DNA from: Candidatus Giovannonibacteria bacterium RIFCSPLOWO2_02_FULL_43_54
GTDB taxonomy: Bacteria; Patescibacteriota; Minisyncoccia; UBA11713; 2-01-FULL-45-33
NCBI GenBank assembly: GCA_001778875.1
Contig: MFIK01000041.1
Coordinates: 2,033-66,032, forward strand
DNA: 64,000 nt
Direction: 5' to 3'
In this document: positions 27,123 to 42,364 of the stretch, in pieces
How positions within the stretch are numbered: position 1 is the first letter of the stretch
Layout: each line of letters begins with the position of its first letter
Position numbers and translations under genes: made by a program
Notes under the pieces: generated by a model
Told to the model about the DNA's origin: nothing
The model's database searches: none
The model's input: the letters and a program-made list of their open reading frames with translations, nothing else

Positions 27123-27310
27123 AATCCGAACACCTTAAATCTTGTTGTAGGATAAGGAATTTCCTGTAGAGGAACGGAGAAAGCGTAGAATTTTGTTGTA
27201 TTTTATACGTTTTCTTCGTTCCTTGAAAATTAGGAATGGTTGAATTTAGCTTGCAGAATTGGTCTGCAAGTGTTCGGATTCAAATGAGACATAAGGTTTC
27301 AGGAGGAAAA
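27123..27310 (+). ncRNA. Candidate structured 5-prime leader or cis-regulatory RNA upstream of a small ORF
   Basis: 10-nt long-range complementarity ATCCGAACAC (27123-27132) with GTGTTCGGAT (27270-27279) enclosing several local hairpins (TTCCTgtagAGGAA; GCAGAattggTCTGC); an AGGAGG Shine-Dalgarno follows; no match to a riboswitch class I can recognise. Confidence 0.25.
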
Positions 27311-27526
27311 ATGAAAATCGTTAATATCCGAATATACGATTTAACTGTGTTTATGAAAGAAGATTTTTTAGAAGTACCAAACAACCTGAATGTTAGTAAA
27401 GAAAAAAAAGATTGGCAAAAATCGCAAAAGGGTTTCAATTGTCAGTCTTTTGCAGATTATTTAATCAGTAGACGAGGAGCCAAAAGAGTGAACTTAGAAG
27501 TTTATTCAACTGAATATAAACGATGA
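27311..27526 (+). CDS. Small hypothetical protein (71 aa)
   Basis: Strong Shine-Dalgarno (CAGGAGGAAAA) 6 nt upstream of the ATG; followed by a terminator. Confidence 0.4.
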   Translation: MKIVNIRIYDLTVFMKEDFLEVPNNLNVSKEKKDWQKSQKGFNCQSFADYLISRRGAKRVNLEVYSTEYKR

Positions 27527-27555: not shown

Positions 27556-27620
27556 AACTTAAATAAACAATCTTATCCGATCGGTTGCGTTTGTTTAGTT
27601 TGATCGGATATAGTTTGATT

Positions 27621-27662
27621 AAAAAAACGGCTAAGTGGCAGGCTTAGCCGTTTGTTTTTTTT
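27621..27662. terminator. Bidirectional terminator CGGCTAAG(tggcagg)CTTAGCCG flanked by A7 and T-rich runs; overlaps the meaB stop codon
   Basis: 8-bp perfect stem with flanking homopolymers. Confidence 0.55.
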
Positions 27663-28374
27663 CTATAAATTTTTTATGGATAAAAAGTCCTTCAACGACC
27701 TCTGTGATACCCGAACCGGTTTCGGCGTTCGCAAGATATACTTTCTTTCGCCAGCCGTCATCCAGACATTGTTCGCCGAGAACCAGCTTTGCCGAGGCAA
27801 AGAATTTTTTGCCTGATCTGAAATCTTCGCGGTCGTTAACCACAAAAATATTCGCTTCTTCGCTCTGTCCGGCCTTTTCCAGATTTAAGGAGTCTCCCAG
27901 AGGCTCTATTACCTGGACGAGCGTATCAACGTGTTCGCGTATTTCAACATCGGTTTGTCCCGCTCCAGCGGTTTCGACGATAACGACATCGGAGAATAAT
28001 TTTGAATAAGCGATGATCTTGGAAAAGGAATCTGTGAGAGCAAACCCTTCTCCTCTTGTCGCGAGGCTTCTGATAAATAGTCCTTTGTCACAATCCAATT
28101 CGTCACTCCTTAAATTCCTGCGGTCTCCCAGTATTGCCCATCCTCTTTTTTTTGAGCTTGGATCAATAAGCAGAGCGACTACTCGCATGCCCTTTTTTCT
28201 GAATGATGGGATAAGCCGGCCGATAAGGGTGCTTTTCCCTGCGCCGGTAACGCCCGTGACGCCGATGACCCAGGTATCCGAGCTGTCGATATGCATTTCC
28301 ATAGTCGGATATTTTTGGAAGCAGCCGATAATATAAGCCAAAGCTTGCCTTTCAAGTATTCCTATTTTTTTCAT
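27631..28374 (-). CDS. meaB: MeaB/ArgK-type G-protein chaperone of methylmalonyl-CoA mutase
   Basis: P-loop GVTGVTGAGKSTL; LIDPSS; ETAGAGQ; 1-nt overlap (TAATG) with the mutase gene. Confidence 0.85.
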   Translation of the reverse strand: MKKIGILERQALAYIIGCFQKYPTMEMHIDSSDTWVIGVTGVTGAGKSTLIGRLIPSFRKKGMRVVALLIDPSSKKRGWAILGDRRNLRSDELDCDKGLFIRSLATRGEGFALTDSFSKIIAYSKLFSDVVIVETAGAGQTDVEIREHVDTLVQVIEPLGDSLNLEKAGQSEEANIFVVNDREDFRSGKKFFASAKLVLGEQCLDDGWRKKVYLANAETGSGITEVVEGLFIHKKFIEKKQTAKPAT

Positions 28375-34813: not shown

Positions 34814-34849
34814 GTTTCTGAAAAAAAGAAACCGCCCGCTTTTTATTTT
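34806..34849 (+). terminator. Intrinsic terminator (long bulged stem GCGGGTAGGTTTCT...AGAAACCGCCCGC plus TTTTTATTTT)
   Basis: Extended inverted repeat and T-run at the 3-prime end of the kinase-like gene. Confidence 0.6.
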
Positions 34850-35694
34850 GTATAAACCTTTGAATTATTTTTTATGAAATCAATCATCTCGTTTCGCGAG
34901 ATGAGGCCGTTTTTTTCGATCATATTTTTTAATGAGCCTGTTTGCGCGGCTTCCGTCAGGATCGACTCGAAATATTTGAGCGTGAGGCGCAAAGGTGTCA
35001 CGGGAATAAGGACGATTTGATAGCCCAAAACAAAAAGTTTTTCCGCGGTAAGATCAGACGGGGATTTTCCTCCCTCGGCCATATTTGCAGCGAGCGGGAT
35101 ATTTATGACATCTCTCCCGAATATCCGAAATTCATCTTCCGACTCCAGCGCTTCAGGGAATATTATGTCCGCTCCGGCTTGTTTGTATCCATAACCGCGC
35201 CATTTTGCTTCGGAGAGGCCGTCTGTCGCTCTTGAATCAGTTCTTGCGACAATAAGAAAATCCTGATTTTTTCTGGCGGATACCGCGGCCTTGATCTTCT
35301 TTTCCATCTCGTCTATTGGAATGATTTTTTTTGCGTCCAAATGCCCGCATCTTTTTTCTGAAGGAACTTGATCTTCTATTTGAACAGCGCTTGCTCCGGA
35401 GGCTTCAAGCGCTTTAACGGTTTTTGCGATCGATTGAAAGCCTGTATCGCAATCAACCAAAAGAGGCATATCGCTCGCGCGTCTTATTTCGCGGACTAGG
35501 CTTGTTATTCTTGCGAGCGTTATTTTCCCTTCGTCCAAAAAACCCAAAGAAGTGGAGAGCGCTGCGCCAGAAATATAACACGCCTTAAAATCTGCCTTTT
35601 CCGCAAGCAACGCTTCGATAGGGGACAAAATTCCCGGCAGGATAAGATTTTCATTCTCCGATAACAGCTCGCGGAGAGTTTTTCTTCCGGCCAT
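34843..35694 (-). CDS. Isocitrate lyase / PEP mutase family protein, 2-methylisocitrate lyase (PrpB)-like
   Basis: ILPGILSPIEALLAEKADFKACYISGAA, DCDTGF, SAVQIEDQVPSEKRCGHL motifs; start at the internal ATG (MAGRKTL). Confidence 0.7.
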   Translation of the reverse strand: MAGRKTLRELLSENENLILPGILSPIEALLAEKADFKACYISGAALSTSLGFLDEGKITLARITSLVREIRRASDMPLLVDCDTGFQSIAKTVKALEASGASAVQIEDQVPSEKRCGHLDAKKIIPIDEMEKKIKAAVSARKNQDFLIVARTDSRATDGLSEAKWRGYGYKQAGADIIFPEALESEDEFRIFGRDVINIPLAANMAEGGKSPSDLTAEKLFVLGYQIVLIPVTPLRLTLKYFESILTEAAQTGSLKNMIEKNGLISRNEMIDFIKNNSKVYTK

Positions 35695-35767
35695 TTTTAA
35701 TCTCGCAATCTGACAAAAAGAATAGCATAGCAATAATAAGAAAATCAAAAACCCGGCGGATGCCGGG

Positions 35768-36289
35768 TTATTTTTTCGGCGGATAGAGCAGTGCGTGTAT
35801 TTCATTTGGATCAGGTTCGACTCTGACTGCAAAAAATCTTGCCTCCGCGCAAATCACGCCTTTTACAACAAGTTCTGCAAAAATAGTGCAACGCCTGCTT
35901 TCTGTTTTCAGCTCTTCAACTCTGGCAAGAACAGTGATTATTTCCGAGTCAATCGGTATCGGCTTTAAATATTTTACGTAGTCGGAACCGCCGGTTACAT
36001 ACATAATGACGGGGTCGCTTGCAAAAGGACGTTTTTCAAAATCGTACCTTGCCGCAATCGCCGTCCAGATGGAATGACAGTCCATCAATGCGTATTGGAT
36101 GGCGCCATTGATTCTGCCCCTGGTAGTCGCGGTGCAAAATTTTCTAATTCGCCAATTGCAAATGGTTTCTTTGTGGTCAGGACCCACCCAATAGCTTTTT
36201 GTGACGTGAATGCCTCTTTTGTTCGCCGGTCCGCAACCAAAACAGATATTGCCCGGAAAATGTTCCTGAAAGGATTTTTCTTTTTTCAT
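35768..36289 (-). CDS. Hotdog-fold thioesterase (PaaI/4HBT family)
   Basis: INGAIQYALMDCHSIWTAIA and the C-terminal hotdog-helix region; 173 aa. Confidence 0.6.
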   Translation of the reverse strand: MKKEKSFQEHFPGNICFGCGPANKRGIHVTKSYWVGPDHKETICNWRIRKFCTATTRGRINGAIQYALMDCHSIWTAIAARYDFEKRPFASDPVIMYVTGGSDYVKYLKPIPIDSEIITVLARVEELKTESRRCTIFAELVVKGVICAEARFFAVRVEPDPNEIHALLYPPKK

Positions 36290-36298
36290 GCCGACACC

Positions 36299-36853
36299 TC
36301 AATCCACCGGCACCCATGCTAGATCAAGGATGGTGTAAGTCGGGTTTCGTCTCCGAAAGACCGGCTTGACCGGCATTCCTATGTAAGGCTCATCTTCGGC
36401 AAATTTTGAAAGATAGCTCATTGGCCGTGTCCACACTTTTGGTATTTCAAGCGATATCAAGGGACACGGGACTGTTCCCTTAAATCCTGCTCCCGGCAAA
36501 TTTGTTGTTGAGTGGCTGTAAATTTTAGCACCCGTCGGATCAATGGTCATCCAAGTCATCTTGCGCCAGCAGTCCGGACAATGAACCCGGGGAGGCAGCC
36601 AAATATTTCCTTCCGGCCCTCCGCAATTCCAGCATTTAGTTCCCAAAAGCGCGCCTTCCGTAAGTCCTTTGAAAAATTTGGAAAGGCCTCCATAAGTATG
36701 TACGTGGACGATCTCCCGCGGATTGAATCTCACCAGTAAATCGTCCGGAATTTTTTCCTTGAACCATTCTTTGGCAAGTTTCGGCGCGCCGTCCGACGGT
36801 ATCATTACATGTTGTCTTATTTTTCTGTTATTCATTTTACCAGCCCCTTTCAA
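36299..36853 (-). CDS. DUF35 OB-fold / rubredoxin-like zinc-ribbon protein (partner subunit of SCP2-type thiolases)
   Basis: Cys-rich CWNCG...CPDC zinc ribbon plus OB fold; sits directly downstream of the SCP2-thiolase gene, as in known thiolase/DUF35 pairs. Confidence 0.65.
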   Translation of the reverse strand: MKGAGKMNNRKIRQHVMIPSDGAPKLAKEWFKEKIPDDLLVRFNPREIVHVHTYGGLSKFFKGLTEGALLGTKCWNCGGPEGNIWLPPRVHCPDCWRKMTWMTIDPTGAKIYSHSTTNLPGAGFKGTVPCPLISLEIPKVWTRPMSYLSKFAEDEPYIGMPVKPVFRRRNPTYTILDLAWVPVD

Positions 36854-38216
36854 GGATCAGTGCGGTTACGTGCGAGCCGGTTCCTGCGTGGCTGATTGCC
36901 ATTCCGCGCGTCGCGTTCGGCACCTGAAGACTTTTGAAATCTTTCGGCTTTGTTTTGCCATATTTATTCCAATATTTTTCGTCCGCGTGGAATTTTTCCC
37001 ATTCATTGCGGATTTGCCAAAAAATTTCCGCGATCTGGAAAATTCCGGTGGCTCCAACCGAATGCATCGAGCCGATAAGGCCGCCAGAAAGATTTGTCGG
37101 CAATTTGCGTTCTGACGGCAGATCACTTTCCAGATATGCCTCACCCGACTCAATAAATTCGGCGCCTCTGCCATAGGGGCGCAACCCGATATCTTCGTAG
37201 GTTATGATGTCTGAAACCGTGAACGCGTCGTGCGTTTCAAGCAGGTCAAGTTCGCGGATTGGATTATGAATTCCTGCCATATTATACGCCTGCCAGGCGG
37301 CGAAACGGGCTGCAAGAAAGCTTATAAAACCTGGCCAATCTCTTTCTGGCCAATCTTTATACATCTCCGGTGTTTCGCTTGGGAGAAGCAAGATCGGCAT
37401 GTTCCTGCGATCTGCCGTGCGCAATGTGTGCGATCCCGCGCCCATTCCCAAAACGCGCACTGGCTTGTCTGTAAACCGGAACGCGGTTTCTTCGTCCGCA
37501 ATTATCACGGATGCCGCTCCCGTGCTCATTACGCAGCACTCTGGAAATGTAAGCGGGTCTGAAACTATCTGCGAGTTCAGTATCTCTTCAATCGTATAAT
37601 CTTTCGGCGACTGCGAATACGGAGAGAAGCGCGCGTAATGATGGTTTTTTTGTGCGATCTTTGCAAGCGTTTCTCGTAGCGGCTTGTTTTCGTGGATATA
37701 TCTTTGCATTGGCAAACCGTAATAAGTTGTGTAGCTTCTGCCAAGTTCGTATTCAAAATCTTTGCACGCGGCGGATGCGATGTATGAGTTGCCTTGCCTG
37801 GTCGAAACTTCATCCATTCTCTCCCAGCCGATTACAGGCACGCAAGAAGCAACGCCTGACGCAACAGCCATTATGGCTGCCTGCGCTGCCGAACCGCCTG
37901 TTGCTCCACCTGTTTTCACCTCGATATTTCCGAGAGGATCAAATCCAGCATAGTCATGCACTTTTGCTGCGGCAAGCAATTGGTCGCCGAAATGGTCGGC
38001 AAATTGCGAATGCACGCAATAATTCGGCTCTTCCAGAAATTTTTTAGGTTCCATCCCGAGGCCATCCATAACGGCCATTCTTATTGCTTCAAGGCACAAT
38101 TCAACGGTCTGCTTTTCCGGATAAAATTTCCTGAAATCCGTCATCCCAGCGGCTACAATATAAACATTCCGCGATAGCTTAGGCACCCTCAAATTTCCTT
38201 TGCCGAATGTTAGCAT
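36837..38216 (-). CDS. SCP2/thiolase-like 3-ketoacyl-CoA thiolase
   Basis: Thiolase fold throughout (VYIVAAGMTDFRKF, catalytic Cys region, C-terminal HAGTGSH); 459 aa. Confidence 0.8.
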   Translation of the reverse strand: MLTFGKGNLRVPKLSRNVYIVAAGMTDFRKFYPEKQTVELCLEAIRMAVMDGLGMEPKKFLEEPNYCVHSQFADHFGDQLLAAAKVHDYAGFDPLGNIEVKTGGATGGSAAQAAIMAVASGVASCVPVIGWERMDEVSTRQGNSYIASAACKDFEYELGRSYTTYYGLPMQRYIHENKPLRETLAKIAQKNHHYARFSPYSQSPKDYTIEEILNSQIVSDPLTFPECCVMSTGAASVIIADEETAFRFTDKPVRVLGMGAGSHTLRTADRRNMPILLLPSETPEMYKDWPERDWPGFISFLAARFAAWQAYNMAGIHNPIRELDLLETHDAFTVSDIITYEDIGLRPYGRGAEFIESGEAYLESDLPSERKLPTNLSGGLIGSMHSVGATGIFQIAEIFWQIRNEWEKFHADEKYWNKYGKTKPKDFKSLQVPNATRGMAISHAGTGSHVTALILERGW

Positions 38217-38357
38217 TTATGCTCCTTTTCCTGTTTTCAATCCCGCCTTAGGCGGGTAAATCTATTCAAAAGCTAGCAAAAGAAAATTCTGACGTAAAGT
38301 CGATTGCCGGTTTGCAGATAGAAAATAACTCCCTTCTATTTTTCTACTTTTCATACA

Positions 38358-38393
38358 TTGATCAACTTTACGCGATCGCGTAAAGTTGAACCA
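38358..38393 (+). promoter_or_regulatory. Candidate autoregulated promoter: TTGATC (-35), 17-bp spacer that is the core of the perfect palindrome CAACTTTACGCGATCGCGTAAAGTTG (38363-38388), TAAAGT (-10), then the ATG 7 nt downstream (leaderless-type)
   Basis: 26-nt perfect palindrome overlapping consensus-like promoter hexamers immediately upstream of the ATG at 38394. Confidence 0.45.
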
Positions 38394-38951
38394 ATGGCAA
38401 AGTATTATTATAGCCCGATAAAACAGCGCGTTGTTATGCTTCTCGCGGCAGGTTTCATGCTTGGTTTTTCAAAGTCGCCGCGCACCCACGCAAAAATATG
38501 GAAAAGCCTTCCGAAAGTATGGAAAGAAATAGGGCGTATTACGCTCCGGCGCATCATTAAAGAATTTAAATATAAACGGTTAGTTGATTTCAAAGAAGAA
38601 AAAGACGGCACAGTGTCGGTCGTATTAACGAAACTCGGACAACATCATGCCTTAAAATATAATCCGGAAAAGATCAAAATTTCAATTCCGACGAAATGGG
38701 ACGGAAAATGGAGAGTTGTTATTTTTGATATACCGGAGAAGAAAAAGAAGGCAAGGGACGCTTTGCGTTGGGAACTCAAGAAAATAGGTTTTATAGAGCT
38801 TCAAAAAAGCGCCTGGATTTTCCCTTACGAATGCGAAAACGCGATTGATTTTATTGTTGAGTTATTTGATGTCCGCAATTATGTGCGGATATTGGAAGTA
38901 GCAAGCATGAATCATGATGCCGATTTGCTATTGGATTTTGATCTCACATAA
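38394..38951 (+). CDS. Predicted transcriptional regulator: N-terminal winged-helix-like region plus C-terminal Cas2/VapD-fold-like domain (PaaX-like architecture)
   Basis: C-terminal KWRVVIFDIPEKKKKARDALRWELKKIGFIELQKSAWIFP follows the Cas2 beta1-alpha1-beta2 pattern; flanked by two related palindromes; start at the ATG inside the listed ORF. Confidence 0.5.
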   Translation: MAKYYYSPIKQRVVMLLAAGFMLGFSKSPRTHAKIWKSLPKVWKEIGRITLRRIIKEFKYKRLVDFKEEKDGTVSVVLTKLGQHHALKYNPEKIKISIPTKWDGKWRVVIFDIPEKKKKARDALRWELKKIGFIELQKSAWIFPYECENAIDFIVELFDVRNYVRILEVASMNHDADLLLDFDLT

Positions 38952-38976
38952 TACTATAAACAGTAATGTAACTAGT

Positions 38977-39004
38977 CCAACTTTCCGCGGTCGCGAGAAG
39001 TTGG
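38977..39004. promoter_or_regulatory. Second, imperfect copy of the palindromic site (CCAACTTTCCGCGGTCGCGAGAAGTTGG) downstream of the regulator gene
   Basis: 22 of 26 positions identical to the upstream palindrome; no T-run, so unlikely to be a simple terminator. Confidence 0.4.
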
Positions 39005-39039
39005 ACGGATAGGTTTAAAGAAAATAAAAATCTAAAAAA

Positions 39040-39636
39040 TTATTTACAAGAATGAGAAGTGTGGAGTGCAGAAATAACTCCAGAAAAATTTGTACTGTCT
39101 GCACAATAATATTCTCCACTATATAGTTTGGCTGATACTGCGTAGGACTCTCCATCAGTACAACGAAATGGTTGACTCCCTAATTTTTCTTTTATCTCTG
39201 CCAACGTTCTATGTGCGGGCTCTTCTTTTGTATTACAAAAACCTGCATAATTTGGATGGGAATCCCTGTACATTTCAGCTGAAGGACGTGTGGTCGCTAT
39301 TAAGTTTAAGAGAGCAAGATCATCTTGGACTCTGTCTTTTTGAGTTTCCGCTGTCGCGCTCTTGCTCTGATCAATAATCATCGTCAAAGTTGCTTTGTAT
39401 CCTTGCGAGAGCCACTCGTCTGAACCATCTCGAGCTACCACAGAAATAACAATGAATTTGTTGTTATTTAGTGGTATAACATATGAGTCGCTTTTAGCTT
39501 TGGTTTCTTTGTAAATTATTTGTTTGGAATCAATCCCACTTATTTTTACTTTTTCTTCAACATAAGGACGACCTGAATATTCTGCCATACCTCTTGCCTC
39601 TATTGCCGGGTCTTTATCGACAAGATAAATTCCCAT
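39040..39636 (-). CDS. Hypothetical secreted or membrane-associated protein; possibly the C-terminal part of a frameshifted gene continuing from ORF 39695..39994
   Basis: 198-aa ORF; the upstream ORF lies in a different frame (offset 1 mod 3), separated by 58 nt. Confidence 0.35.
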   Translation of the reverse strand: MGIYLVDKDPAIEARGMAEYSGRPYVEEKVKISGIDSKQIIYKETKAKSDSYVIPLNNNKFIVISVVARDGSDEWLSQGYKATLTMIIDQSKSATAETQKDRVQDDLALLNLIATTRPSAEMYRDSHPNYAGFCNTKEEPAHRTLAEIKEKLGSQPFRCTDGESYAVSAKLYSGEYYCADSTNFSGVISALHTSHSCK

Positions 39637-39694
39637 CTCATGATCAAAGTAAGTATAATTTGAGGTGTATCCAATCGGTTCCTTTTTTCCAAGA

Positions 39695-39994
39695 TCAGAA
39701 AAAGGCTACTCCTTCTCTTACATCACTGACAATCCAATTTGATGGAATTGAGATATTATATAACCCTGATGGATGGCGATATGTTTTATTAGAAATTGAT
39801 TTCGCTGTCGCTGGCGAGGATGGTGTAGAAACTTCCAAATTAGTGTCCTCTATTTTCGAAGATTCGGATTTATTTTCAGATTTTGTAATTCCTTTATTTA
39901 AATAAATATATGTTCCTCCTCCAATCAAAACTAAACCTACAATGATTGCTATTGCCAAACCAATAAAACCTTGCTGTGAGTTTTTCATATTCAT
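39695..39994 (-). CDS. Hypothetical protein with an N-terminal transmembrane anchor (possible N-terminal part of a split gene)
   Basis: FIGLAIAIIVGLVLIGGGTYIY helix followed by a Ser/Thr-rich linker. Confidence 0.35.
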   Translation of the reverse strand: MNMKNSQQGFIGLAIAIIVGLVLIGGGTYIYLNKGITKSENKSESSKIEDTNLEVSTPSSPATAKSISNKTYRHPSGLYNISIPSNWIVSDVREGVAFF

Positions 39995-40095
39995 ATCATA
40001 TTCTTATTTTAGCAATTTATCAACCGAAACTCCAAGCGATTGAGCTAAACAGATTTCAGGCCAGAGTGCAGGAGAAAATAAAAGCCGCCTCTTTA

Positions 40096-40605
40096 TTAGA
40101 AGGCGGACAGTTCTTTTTTTTCGATCTGTTTCAATTTTTCTTCCCAAAGTACGGCAGGCCGGACGGCGTAATGAAAAATATATTGAGCTTTTAGAGTATG
40201 CGGCCGGCTGACATTGTTTAGATTTTTTACCTCAACGGCCACCGAAATGAGGTCCGGTTTAGCAAGCCTGTCATTTATGACGCGCGCGTTTATTCTCAAA
40301 CCTCTTTCGGCCTGGATGGTCGGGGCGTATAGTTTGCCCTTTTCGGTCTTTATATAAAGAACATATTCCTCGGGAGTTGTTAAAGTCATCGCGGCATAGA
40401 TGCCGACCATTACTGCGAAATCTTCGATTCTTTTTCCGCGCACCATCGGAAAGTTGTGCATTGTAAGGATTTCTTTGTTGCCCTCGAGTTCGAGAATGGC
40501 GTAAGCCTTTCCTGTCAGCAGAAGCCGTAATTTTAAATGATTTTCTTTCGCCGAATACAATTCTCCAAAAGACCTTTCAAGCTCAAGAATCCGCCCCACC
40601 GACAC
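40096..40605 (-). CDS. Hypothetical protein (169 aa)
   Basis: ORF with coherent coding statistics; no recognisable motif. Confidence 0.4.
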   Translation of the reverse strand: MSVGRILELERSFGELYSAKENHLKLRLLLTGKAYAILELEGNKEILTMHNFPMVRGKRIEDFAVMVGIYAAMTLTTPEEYVLYIKTEKGKLYAPTIQAERGLRINARVINDRLAKPDLISVAVEVKNLNNVSRPHTLKAQYIFHYAVRPAVLWEEKLKQIEKKELSAF

Positions 40606-40657: not shown

Positions 40658-42364
40658 TCAAGGCACTGGCATTTTTTTATCAATAATTTTCTGCGCGATT
40701 TCCGCCATTTTCTTCCGGCTTTTTTTGCCGGTGTCTCCGAGTTCTATCTTTTCAATAAAAATTATTTCTTTTATTTTGATATGTTTTTCGAGTTTTTCGT
40801 TTTTCCGTCCGGCTTCGAAAAAATTGAGCAGGTCGGTTTTAGCCTCGCCCTCCTCGAAATCCTTCCCTGGCGAGGTTTTAAGAACAACACAAACAGCTGT
40901 CTCCGTTTCTCCGTCCATGTTAACCGGCACAGCCATCGCATCGTCCACAGACTCATGGGTTTTGGCACATTCGTCTATCGCGGGTCCTTGCACGAATTCT
41001 CCGCGCACTTTCCAGGCATCGGCGGACGCGCGCCAGCCGAAATAAAAAACATTTTTTGTTTCGAAAGGTTTTCGGCAGGTATCTCCCGTGTCAAACCATT
41101 TTCCTCCCCAGCGTTCGGACGGTGCGAAAGCTTTCCTTGTTGCTTCGGGGTTTTTAAAATATTCCCTGAAAACATTGTCTCCGCTGACGATAAGCCTGCC
41201 CCATTTTCCACCCTTTATTTCTTCCCAATTATTTTCCGGATCAACTATTTTAATATTGTCGTGAGAGAGCGCCGTGCCGATGGAGCCCCAATATATCGGG
41301 TCATCAATGTCCGTGCCCGTGCACCAGCAAAGAGTTTCGGTAAGGCCATAGCCCGGGCGGACCTGGATGCCGGTAAACGACATGAATCTTTTGTGTAGTT
41401 CCGGAGAAAGTATGTCGGCGCCGACTATCAGGAAGCGCATATCTTTTCGATGCTCTGCCGGAGGGATGCGGTGCGCGAGCACGTATTTGAGGAACGGGGG
41501 GATGACACTCGAATAAGTAATGTTCCAATCTCCAAGCGTTTTCAAAAATGTTTTCGGATTAGGAGAAGCGAGCACGGTCGTGCCGCCAAGTAGCGTCATC
41601 GCAAACACGTTGGTAACCTGCGCGTTAACGTGAAAAAGCTTATTTATCAGAAGACTTCTGTCATTTTCCGTAAGGCGGTAAGTTTTTATGATGTCCCTCA
41701 CGTTCGGCTCAAACATCCCGCAATGTTGAACTACGGCTTTGGGCTTTCCCGTCGTTCCAGAAGTGCAAATAAGCTGGAAAGGGTCATCTAATGTACGGTG
41801 AACTAGACGATAGTACGGTCGAATAAATTGTTTTAGAATATTCCAGGTGTAAGTTCCAGGATAGCCCTGTCCAATACGCTGCTTGTGGCTTTCAAATCTT
41901 TCGGCATCGTGCATTACAACGATGCGCAATCCGGGGAATTGTTTTAGTAAAAGTTCCAGGAGTAGCGACGGCTTGTTATTTATTTTATCCCAAACGTAGC
42001 GCTCTTGCGTGACCAAAAGTTTTGTTTCGCAAAGTTCCAGTGCGTAGAGCACCTGTTCCGACGTGTATAGGCAATTGACCGGATGGACTTTCGCTCCGAT
42101 GCGCATTGCGCCGATCCACGGCATGAAAAAGTGGAGGCCGTTTTCCAAAAGCAGGCTTACGGTGTCTCCCGGCTCTACGTAGAACGATTTGAGAAGTCCG
42201 GCCGCAAGCGCGGTTTCATCTTCCATTTGAGAATAAGTAAAGGCGCGGCAGGTGTCGGAATCTACCAAGCACAGTTTATTTTTTAAAAGAGGGTCCCGAA
42301 ACATAGTTACAAGGAGATCTGCCGGCGTGCGTCTGCCTGCCGATAAGCAGGATATTTTTTCCAT
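40658..42364 (-). CDS. AMP-forming acyl-CoA synthetase
   Basis: TSGTTGKPKAV, GYGLTET, GDTCRK... motifs of the ANL superfamily; 568 aa. Confidence 0.85.
   Translation of the reverse strand: MEKISCLSAGRRTPADLLVTMFRDPLLKNKLCLVDSDTCRAFTYSQMEDETALAAGLLKSFYVEPGDTVSLLLENGLHFFMPWIGAMRIGAKVHPVNCLYTSEQVLYALELCETKLLVTQERYVWDKINNKPSLLLELLLKQFPGLRIVVMHDAERFESHKQRIGQGYPGTYTWNILKQFIRPYYRLVHRTLDDPFQLICTSGTTGKPKAVVQHCGMFEPNVRDIIKTYRLTENDRSLLINKLFHVNAQVTNVFAMTLLGGTTVLASPNPKTFLKTLGDWNITYSSVIPPFLKYVLAHRIPPAEHRKDMRFLIVGADILSPELHKRFMSFTGIQVRPGYGLTETLCWCTGTDIDDPIYWGSIGTALSHDNIKIVDPENNWEEIKGGKWGRLIVSGDNVFREYFKNPEATRKAFAPSERWGGKWFDTGDTCRKPFETKNVFYFGWRASADAWKVRGEFVQGPAIDECAKTHESVDDAMAVPVNMDGETETAVCVVLKTSPGKDFEEGEAKTDLLNFFEAGRKNEKLEKHIKIKEIIFIEKIELGDTGKKSRKKMAEIAQKIIDKKMPVP

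Follow-up and report, generated by a model that had tools for sequence, protein, structure and literature searches.

A small PaaX-type regulator gene in Candidatus Giovannonibacteria lies between two palindromes that probably act as its operators

We analysed a 64,000-nucleotide (nt) stretch of contig MFIK01000041.1 from Candidatus Giovannonibacteria bacterium RIFCSPLOWO2_02_FULL_43_54 (hereafter the window), in which the gene for a 185-aa protein, here called mini-PaaX, is placed between two related palindromes, U (upstream) and D (downstream). We consider it probable (about 70%) that this unit is a self-contained autorepressor cassette, made up of a promoter with an overlapping operator, the regulator gene and a second operator. 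Three aspects are new: the conservation of the operator–gene–operator layout, a tripartite operator built around an RCGATCGY core, and evidence for reading of this core by the Cas2-like domain of the protein.

A regulator gene between two related palindromes

The features of the cassette, in window coordinates, are as follows.

38358-38363, plus strand: putative -35 hexamer TTGATC, overlapping the left end of U, conserved in orthologues
38362-38389, no strand: U, predicted upstream operator, 28-nt perfect palindrome TCAACTTTACGCGATCGCGTAAAGTTGA, dyad between 38375 and 38376
38381-38386, plus strand: putative -10 hexamer TAAAGT, part of U's right arm, ending 7 nt before the ATG
38394-38951, plus strand: mini-PaaX regulator gene, ATG to TAA, 185 aa
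38415-38657, plus strand: winged helix, approximately residues 8-88
38691-38936, plus strand: Cas2-like PaaX_M domain, residues 100-181
38727-38759, plus strand: codons of D112-I-P-E-K-K-K118-K-A-R-D122, end of beta1 and start of alpha1 in the Cas2-like domain
38745-38747, plus strand: codon of K118, which together with D122 is the putative reader of the operator core
38975-39006, no strand: D, predicted downstream operator, 32-nt imperfect palindrome GTCCAACTTTCCGCGGTCGCGAGAAGTTGGAC, dyad between 38990 and 38991

The inner 26 nt of U (CAACTTTACGCGATCGCGTAAAGTTG, 38363-38388) form a perfect palindrome as well, and U as a whole can be divided into the core GCGATCGC and the distal half-sites CAACTTT/AAAGTTG. 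The corresponding inner copy in D (CAACTTTCCGCGGTCGCGAGAAGTTG, 38978-39003) begins at the 27th nt past the stop codon and is identical to U at 22 of 26 positions. An earlier note made from the sequence alone had described the open reading frame (ORF), both hexamers, the perfect 26-nt palindrome and its 22/26 downstream copy, and all of these descriptions hold, with a protein length of 185 aa. D is located where the regulator gene converges with a 198-aa ORF (39040-39636, minus strand), between their 3' ends, and is the sole notable element within the 88 nt that separate the two genes. When the 64 kb were searched with the exact pattern or with the relaxed pattern CAACTTNNCGCGNNCGCGNNAAGTTG (up to three mismatches), only U and D were returned, while 0.00 matches are expected from shuffled sequences. 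Generic genome-wide repeats, which the same note had named as an outcome speaking against a link to this gene, are not indicated: the window holds no further copies; solo copies of the same type do occur in metagenomes.

Flanking palindromes are a trait of the family

A scan of species-representative genomes yielded 600 candidate stretches, 497 of which encode a relative. The best 80 loci, of about 6.5 kb each, together with the window make up the set of 81 loci to which the following counts refer. Two kinds of palindrome scan were applied to this set. In the unbiased scan, 34 loci have a strong palindrome within 200 nt upstream of the gene, 32 have one within this distance downstream and 20 have one on each side, which corresponds to a roughly 14-fold enrichment over the background elsewhere in the same loci (0.03 strong palindromes per 200 bp). 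The majority of these flanking palindromes (47 of 71) are centred on CGATCG, and 15 more on the one-base variants CTATCG, CGATAG, CGGTCG and CGACCG. The core-centred scan detected an upstream site in 55 loci, a downstream site in 48 and both in 38, against a background of 0.011 per 260 bp; at least one side is occupied in 65 of the 81 loci. Relative to the start codon, the upstream dyad has its median at -47 nt and clusters around -26 and -46; relative to the stop codon, the median of the downstream dyad is +38 nt. The dyads of the relative P0039 are unusually distant from the gene ends, at -147 and +168 relative to the gene.

Operator positions were numbered outward from the dyad, the core RCGATCGY covering positions 1-4. 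The two copies of one locus are identical at 33.4 of 44 positions on average, the arms vary between loci, and paralogues of one genome have 42% of arm positions 5-17 in common. A comparison of U and D locus by locus revealed that positions 1-4 and 9-17 are conserved, while positions 5-8 vary and often lose their symmetry. Because 1-4 and 9-17 are kept while 5-8 drift, the pattern is that of a protein site rather than of a stem. Across the family, information is confined to the core, in which T is never seen at position 4, this base being G or A. Judged from these patterns, the element is a predicted tripartite protein-binding site with an RCGATCGY core, a loose spacer and distal half-sites.

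Two further observations concern the sites themselves. Asymmetric cores (CTATCG/CGATAG) can be present in both U and D of a locus; in a comparison of L034, L038 and L040 with L045, L052 and L057, three loci carry them in opposite orientations in U and D, and the three others in one and the same orientation. Third, locus-specific copies of the palindrome occur a few hundred bp beyond the flanking pair at L019:4192-4234 and L068:2661-2705.

The operator core covaries with a residue of the Cas2-like domain

Protein–DNA covariation was calculated as mutual information (MI) between alignment columns and operator positions, and switches were mapped on a neighbour-joining tree with 126 branches. One pair stood out, operator position 4 and residue 118, which is the [K/R] of DIPExx[K/R] where alpha1 begins (MI 0.82 bit, z 22). 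K118 is found with G (GCGATCGC) in 34 loci and R118 with A or C in 26, so that 60 of 64 fit the rule (exceptions in this first set: three K118/N122 proteins with A). The window is in line with it, as its K118 is matched by G at position 4 of U. The tree contains 12 K/R switches, all 12 on the same branch as an operator switch, where about 1.5 joint changes would be expected by chance; one protein-only and three operator-only changes complete the count. For the control residues 116, 117, 119, 120, 124 and 126, only 1-5 joint changes were obtained among 8-35 protein-only changes.

The rule applies to both sides of the gene. Upstream half-sites comprise 56 K-G and 47 R-A/C combinations with 7 exceptions, and downstream half-sites 48 and 43, again with 7 exceptions. 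Since the downstream half-sites obey the residue-118 rule, they are under the same recognition constraint as the upstream ones. E122, one helical turn from residue 118, always occurs with G (16/16), and asymmetric cores are nearly confined to K118 proteins (22/24). Outside the sample, three of four further R118 proteins have ACGATCGT-type cores on both sides. A weaker link connects R53, in the third helix of the winged helix, with operator position 13 (z 7.4; 6 joint changes versus ~1.6 expected). The Cas2-like half of the protein therefore appears to read the centre of the operator site. The covariation and the recurrence of the same layout in 65 of 81 loci strongly support the proposal of the earlier note that the palindromes are probable operators of their own gene.

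The upstream palindrome overlaps a conserved putative promoter

The palindrome had been described as sitting exactly in the 17-bp spacer of the promoter. The -35 to -10 spacing is indeed 17 nt, but U extends into both hexamers and is not restricted to the spacer. A TTGAC[CT] hexamer occupies the place of the window's TTGATC in seven orthologous loci, and the arrangement TTGAC[CT]-17-TAAAGT is kept in eight orthologous loci (proteins 57-100% identical) from at least four unrelated contexts. The DNA farther upstream of the -35 is unrelated among these eight loci, in six of which the dyad lies 18 nt before the ATG. The -35 is missing from all downstream copies, and D is devoid of promoter hexamers. 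In the family as a whole, the distance from the end of the -10-like hexamer to the ATG is 6 nt in 13 loci, which gives a sharp peak, and 5-8 nt in 21; the upstream site overlaps the -10 (dyad at about -26), the -35 (dyad at about -47) or the spacer, as in the window.

Because U overlaps the -35, the spacer and the -10, binding at U should block RNA polymerase. No Shine-Dalgarno sequence precedes the ATG at 38394, and TAAAGT ends 7 nt before this codon, which implies a leaderless or near-leaderless mRNA. On good grounds, we infer autorepression by occlusion and a leaderless transcript from this layout. The autoregulated, leaderless-type promoter suggested earlier is likewise supported by footprinting at the level of sequence conservation, with TTGAC[CT]-17-TAAAGT recurring in the eight orthologous loci.

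A winged helix joined to a Cas2-like domain

In Pfam, PF20803 (PaaX_M) matches residues 100-175 with 84.5 bits (cutoff 24, E 5.4e-24). Models for Cas2 score just below threshold (PF09827, 16.4 versus 23.8; TIGR01573, 23.0 versus 24.5), and the PaaX equivalog model TIGR02277 is far under its cutoff (31.8 versus 264.55 bits). The PaaX_C effector domain (PF08223) is absent, as the protein stops at residue 185 and the Pfam search gives no match to it. A sequence search of the PDB with the family profile gave only marginal matches (VapD, Cas2 3exc, Rv0674), and a fold comparison was therefore needed. The AF2 model, built from 101 sequences with a mean pLDDT of 83.8, matched E. coli PaaX (8a39) first and Cas2 proteins next. 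The fold is ferredoxin-like, and beta1 ends in a conserved Asp, as is characteristic of Cas2. This residue, D112, is invariant in the 101 sequences, P114 and R121 are invariant as well, and E115 is nearly so. When aligned with E. coli PaaX, only the WDGKW/beta1-alpha1 region aligns. The protein is thus what had been predicted from the sequence, a winged helix combined with a Cas2 fold, PaaX-like but smaller.

The downstream site and solo sites

D is present in 22 of 35 loci with a convergent next gene and in 25 of 45 with a co-directional one. Its presence is independent of neighbour orientation, by which a role as operator of a co-directional downstream gene was ruled out. A consensus terminator scan did not find a terminator at D.

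A metagenome scan for AACTTTNNGCGATCGCNNAAAGTT returned 22 loci, 5 of which adjoin an orthologue, whereas 17 (12 distinct sites) are solo. These solo sites, at loci among L092-L112, are perfect palindromes of the type (C/T)(C/T)AACTTTnnGCGATCGCnnAAAGTT(G/A)(G/A) without a nearby regulator homologue; examples are L095:3789-3819, L099:3584-3614, L106:922-952 and L107:717-747. Six of the 12 lie in co-directional, one in divergent and three in convergent intergenic DNA, one is inside an ORF and one was not placed. They have no adjoining -35, and their neighbour genes are unrelated. For comparison with REP/RAYT-type families, which have tens to hundreds of dispersed copies per genome, the counts obtained here are two copies in the 64-kb window, about five strong extra sites in the 447 kb of homologue loci and the 12 solo sites in metagenomes. 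For D and the solo sites, possible roles are those of auxiliary operators, roadblocks or insulators, or sites of a regulon, unless they are relics; the solo palindromes in particular could belong to a regulon, serve as boundary elements or be the scars that lost cassettes left behind.

Proposed mechanism and alternative explanations

Starting from the observed architecture, fold, conservation and covariation, we infer a mode of action for the cassette. Mini-PaaX would be a minimal PaaX-type repressor, composed of a winged helix and a Cas2-like dimerisation domain and lacking the ligand-binding PaaX_C. Its dimer would bind a tripartite palindrome of about 32 bp, with the Cas2-like dimer on the dyad. 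The N-terminal part of alpha1 (residues 118 and 122, near the Cas2-type Asp pair) would read the RCGATCGY core, and each of the two winged helices would read a distal half-site, which is locus-specific in sequence and lies 9-17 bp out from the dyad. The conserved Asp pair of Cas2 is situated where the two subunits of the dimer meet (PMC10491678), and a Cas2-like dimer seated on the dyad is consistent with this placement. Occupation of U would block RNA polymerase and result in negative autoregulation of a probably leaderless mRNA. D, about 615 bp from U and just past the stop codon, would be bound by the same protein and is most likely an auxiliary operator, acting through a cooperative connection with U (bridging or looping) or else separating the cassette from neighbouring transcription as a roadblock or insulator.

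Several points weigh against this interpretation. Sixteen of the 81 loci have no flanking CGATCG-type palindrome, and perfect arms of up to 25 nt in some loci are longer than a dimer needs. The window promoter matches the sigma-70 consensus at 8 of 12 positions and is not listed by a consensus promoter scan. Looping has no direct support, because the U–D distance of 592-810 bp shows no helical phasing (Rayleigh p ~0.5). P0039 (locus L115), the fourth of the out-of-sample proteins, breaks the residue-118 rule in having R118 with GCGATCGC cores, alongside E122, a residue that elsewhere goes with G throughout. The covariation may have an indirect origin, a Cas2-like dimer has been placed on the dyad by analogy only, and a regulator that controls itself alone makes little biological sense.

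In a different view, the protein mainly shapes or insulates the genome at specific sites throughout, or controls a dispersed regulon; the flanking sites would be merely the nearest of many, and D and the solo sites would serve as roadblocks or boundaries, not as looping partners. We regard this as unlikely, although a number of observations agree with it. The solo sites are spread over co-directional, divergent and convergent intergenic DNA roughly as at random, third copies exist near the units of L019 and L068, D occurs independently of the orientation of the downstream gene, it follows the binding rule, and it is the only notable element between the convergent genes of the window. On the other side, the window has no further site, strong extra copies are rare in the homologue loci, and the solo sites may come from genomes without a matching protein. 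A search for a conserved neighbour or regulon by synteny of the homologue loci was negative, with random neighbour orientation and unrelated Pfam matches.

If the palindromes acted as hairpins instead, namely as a 5' stem-loop and a 3' terminator or stabiliser in RNA or as cruciforms, the link to the protein would be incidental, or the Cas2-like domain would bind RNA. Both palindromes would be stable once transcribed (U, -21.5 kcal/mol; D, -20.3/-18.8 kcal/mol; z -4 to -6), D is placed where a terminator would be, and the long perfect arms mentioned above suit a stem. U and D differ by more symmetric double changes than simple expectation would give (48 compensatory), and G-T mismatches on the sense strand outnumber A-C mismatches (72 versus 38). 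This G-T excess follows T-richness, however, and 146 of 256 mismatches are non-wobble. Positions 5-8 are often unpaired while 9-17 are conserved, and the core and the next base, which would be loop and closing positions of a hairpin, covary with a protein residue. U is moreover upstream of the inferred transcript start, D of the window has no subsequent U-run, and an Rfam scan of 37800-39800 gave only a sub-threshold chance match. We rejected an RNA hairpin as the main explanation on account of the non-wobble mismatches and the failure to keep 5-8 paired, and consider any hairpin-based account highly improbable.

We assign a similarly low likelihood to a mobile or self-excising single-gene cassette, in which the palindromes serve for recombination or cleavage, a nuclease-competent Cas2-like domain cuts the CGATCG dyad and solo palindromes represent empty or attachment sites or excision scars. 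The unit is sharply bounded by the -35 and D, outside of which the DNA is unrelated among orthologues, and orthologues of 57-77% identity are found in at least four contexts (thiolase, Mfd/Pth, GyrB/SecE(-NusG) and PfkB-Fba). The 12 distinct solo palindromes of the same type, three of them between convergent genes, and the conservation of D112 and E115 also fit, given that some Cas2 proteins cut double-stranded DNA (PMC10491678). On the other hand, near-identical copies were not seen, and paralogues of the same genome are only ~40% identical and have distinct arms. Several orthologues of 70-77% identity have a stable context, as do P0019 and P0034, and viral contigs hold no family member. U and D differ functionally, as only U has a promoter, asymmetric cores are variably direct or inverted between the two, and target duplications or empty sites were not demonstrated. 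For the mobile or duplicated cassette raised in the earlier note, this means that a recent event is unsupported, the paralogues being old, whereas the unit may have originated, or may occasionally have moved, as a cassette. In its strongest form, a minimal selfish unit whose nuclease-competent Cas2-fold domain cuts the CGATCG dyads flanking its own gene and leaves solo sites as empty or attachment sites, the idea is a long shot. If true, it would describe a free-living Cas2 relative with sequence-specific DNA transactions and would bear on the origin of the CRISPR adaptation module and of PaaX-type repressors.

Relation to known systems

The proposed autorepressor would work like PaaX, the phenylacetyl-CoA-responsive repressor of the paa operon in E. 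coli and Pseudomonas (PDB 8a39, 3l09, 3kfw), with which mini-PaaX has the PF20803 domain and the WDGKW motif in common, next to an N-terminal winged helix that may be of the PaaX type (PF07848). The operator of E. coli PaaX is a long palindrome, TGATTC-N27-GAATCA, and steric hindrance is the means by which the protein represses its own promoter (PMC9493321). Widely spaced half-sites in a long palindrome and occlusion of the own promoter are thus reported there (PMC9493321) and predicted here. PaaX, however, has 316 aa including PaaX_C, compared with 185 aa without this domain, and carries SEGLD where the mini-PaaX family keeps the Cas2-like FDIPE..R. Unlike the operator of PaaX, that of mini-PaaX combines its distal half-sites with a conserved central core, and there is a second operator past the stop codon. 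No paa genes are near the window gene, and the neighbours of orthologues vary (thiolase/ChsH2-like, Mfd/Pth, GyrB/SecE, PfkB/Fba). Since it lacks the effector domain and paa genes and scores below threshold, mini-PaaX is not a PaaX equivalog.

Neither is it a CRISPR Cas2. In contrast to Cas2 and VapD, the window protein has a fused winged helix, is not accompanied by cas1 or a CRISPR array and remains below the Cas2 thresholds; a tandem-repeat and CRISPR search of the 64-kb window found no array, and Cas1 is absent among the called neighbours of 10 contigs. Duplex-DNA contacts are known or proposed for R16 of E. coli Cas2 and for the beta1-alpha1 loop of Cas2 DNases (PMC10491678). These cited contacts are to the DNA backbone (PMC10491678), whereas mini-PaaX is predicted to read the palindrome core sequence-specifically.

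Regulators of the Lrp/AsnC family are typically autoregulated and bind several sites, while their RAM domain binds ligands and does not read DNA. To this family, mini-PaaX has weak structural matches only (AhbA/B, halophilic Lrp) and no sequence relationship, as no Pfam match was obtained. A promoter operator paired with a second operator hundreds of bp away, either beyond the transcribed region or inside it, is known from lambda cI between OL and OR, lac O1-O2 and gal OE-OI. In the mini-PaaX family, by comparison, the second site is conserved across the family, 20-100 nt after the stop codon, and looping, like oligomerisation beyond the dimer, is putative. An insertion sequence or transposon with terminal inverted repeats is not indicated: paralogues of one genome are diverged and differ in their arms, and near-identical copies in different contexts were not seen.

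Distribution, annotation and significance of the family

An identical protein is encoded on contigs of Candidatus Giovannonibacteria, a member of the candidate phyla radiation (CPR), from Rifle-type groundwater, always in the context seen in the window. The best 80 loci are all from metagenome-assembled genomes of Patescibacteria/CPR, 13 genomes giving at least two loci, and a tblastn search across the window found no second paralogue. An exhaustive profile search retrieved at least 500 clusters (50% identity) at E<=1e-30. Because the viral contigs searched contain no family members, the cassette is not phage-borne.

In databases, relatives are named "PaaX family regulator", "hypothetical" or, often, "CRISPR-associated endonuclease Cas2", and some carry a precomputed PF09827 match. 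The "Cas2" label appears in NCBI and JGI records of CPR, for example for P0043, P0070, P0073, P0075, P0095 and P0103. Naming members with a winged helix and PaaX_M as Cas2 looks like a systematic mis-annotation, and correcting it would affect family genes labelled Cas2 in CRISPR-less CPR genomes; close to the loci examined, neither cas1 nor a CRISPR array was seen. No paper in the library that was searched connects PaaX with Cas2, Patescibacteria or CPR.

Should the covariation stem from direct contact, the Cas2 fold would here serve as a base-specific reader of double-stranded DNA. The roles described for Cas2 are those of a scaffold, a backbone contact and a nuclease (PMC10491678), and the central part of PaaX was assigned a role in dimerisation (PMC9493321). 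Base-specific reading would differ from these roles and would link Cas2, VapD and PaaX mechanistically. The family may be among the main transcription-factor families of CPR/Patescibacteria, in which regulation is essentially unstudied. As each paralogue carries its own operator on either side of its gene and a residue-to-base rule (K118/E122-G; R118-A/C) predicts specificity, regulons could be predicted in silico.

Surroundings of the cassette

Further features near the cassette are the following.

38293-38304, no strand: weak half-site-like match CGTAAAGTCGAT, 70 nt upstream of U
39040-39636, minus strand: ORF of 198 aa, no Pfam match
39695-39994, minus strand: ORF of 99 aa, no Pfam match
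40096-40605, minus strand: ORF of 169 aa, no Pfam match

The half-site-like match was not found upstream of orthologues and is probably due to chance. The cassette and the three minus-strand ORFs share a low-GC patch (38001-40000; 0.38 versus ~0.43-0.49 around it). A frameshift is not indicated between the 99-aa and 198-aa ORFs, because they are called separately in all six independent assemblies, although their frames differ. On both sides of the cassette (34843-38216 and 40658-42364), the window encodes thiolase-like, ChsH2-like zinc-ribbon/OB-fold, PEP-mutase/isocitrate-lyase family and AMP-binding acyl-CoA synthetase genes; in assembly L004, the thiolase is split into ORFs of 230 aa and 208 aa. 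Orthologues in the PfkB-Fba context are followed, convergently and just downstream of the cassette, by a small, probably secreted protein with the motif ENCEQY...CLA(R/H)QN(K/R) (L087:4736-4999, L101:1390-1656 and L091:4284-4637, all minus strand). Elsewhere in the window, a weak CCGATCGG-centred palindrome at 27556-27600, with outer arms AAACAA...TTGTTT (8/12 pairs), sits between the convergent ORFs 27236-27526 (plus strand) and 27631-28374 (minus strand); it could serve another paralogue, its core being of the R118 type, or be a product of chance.

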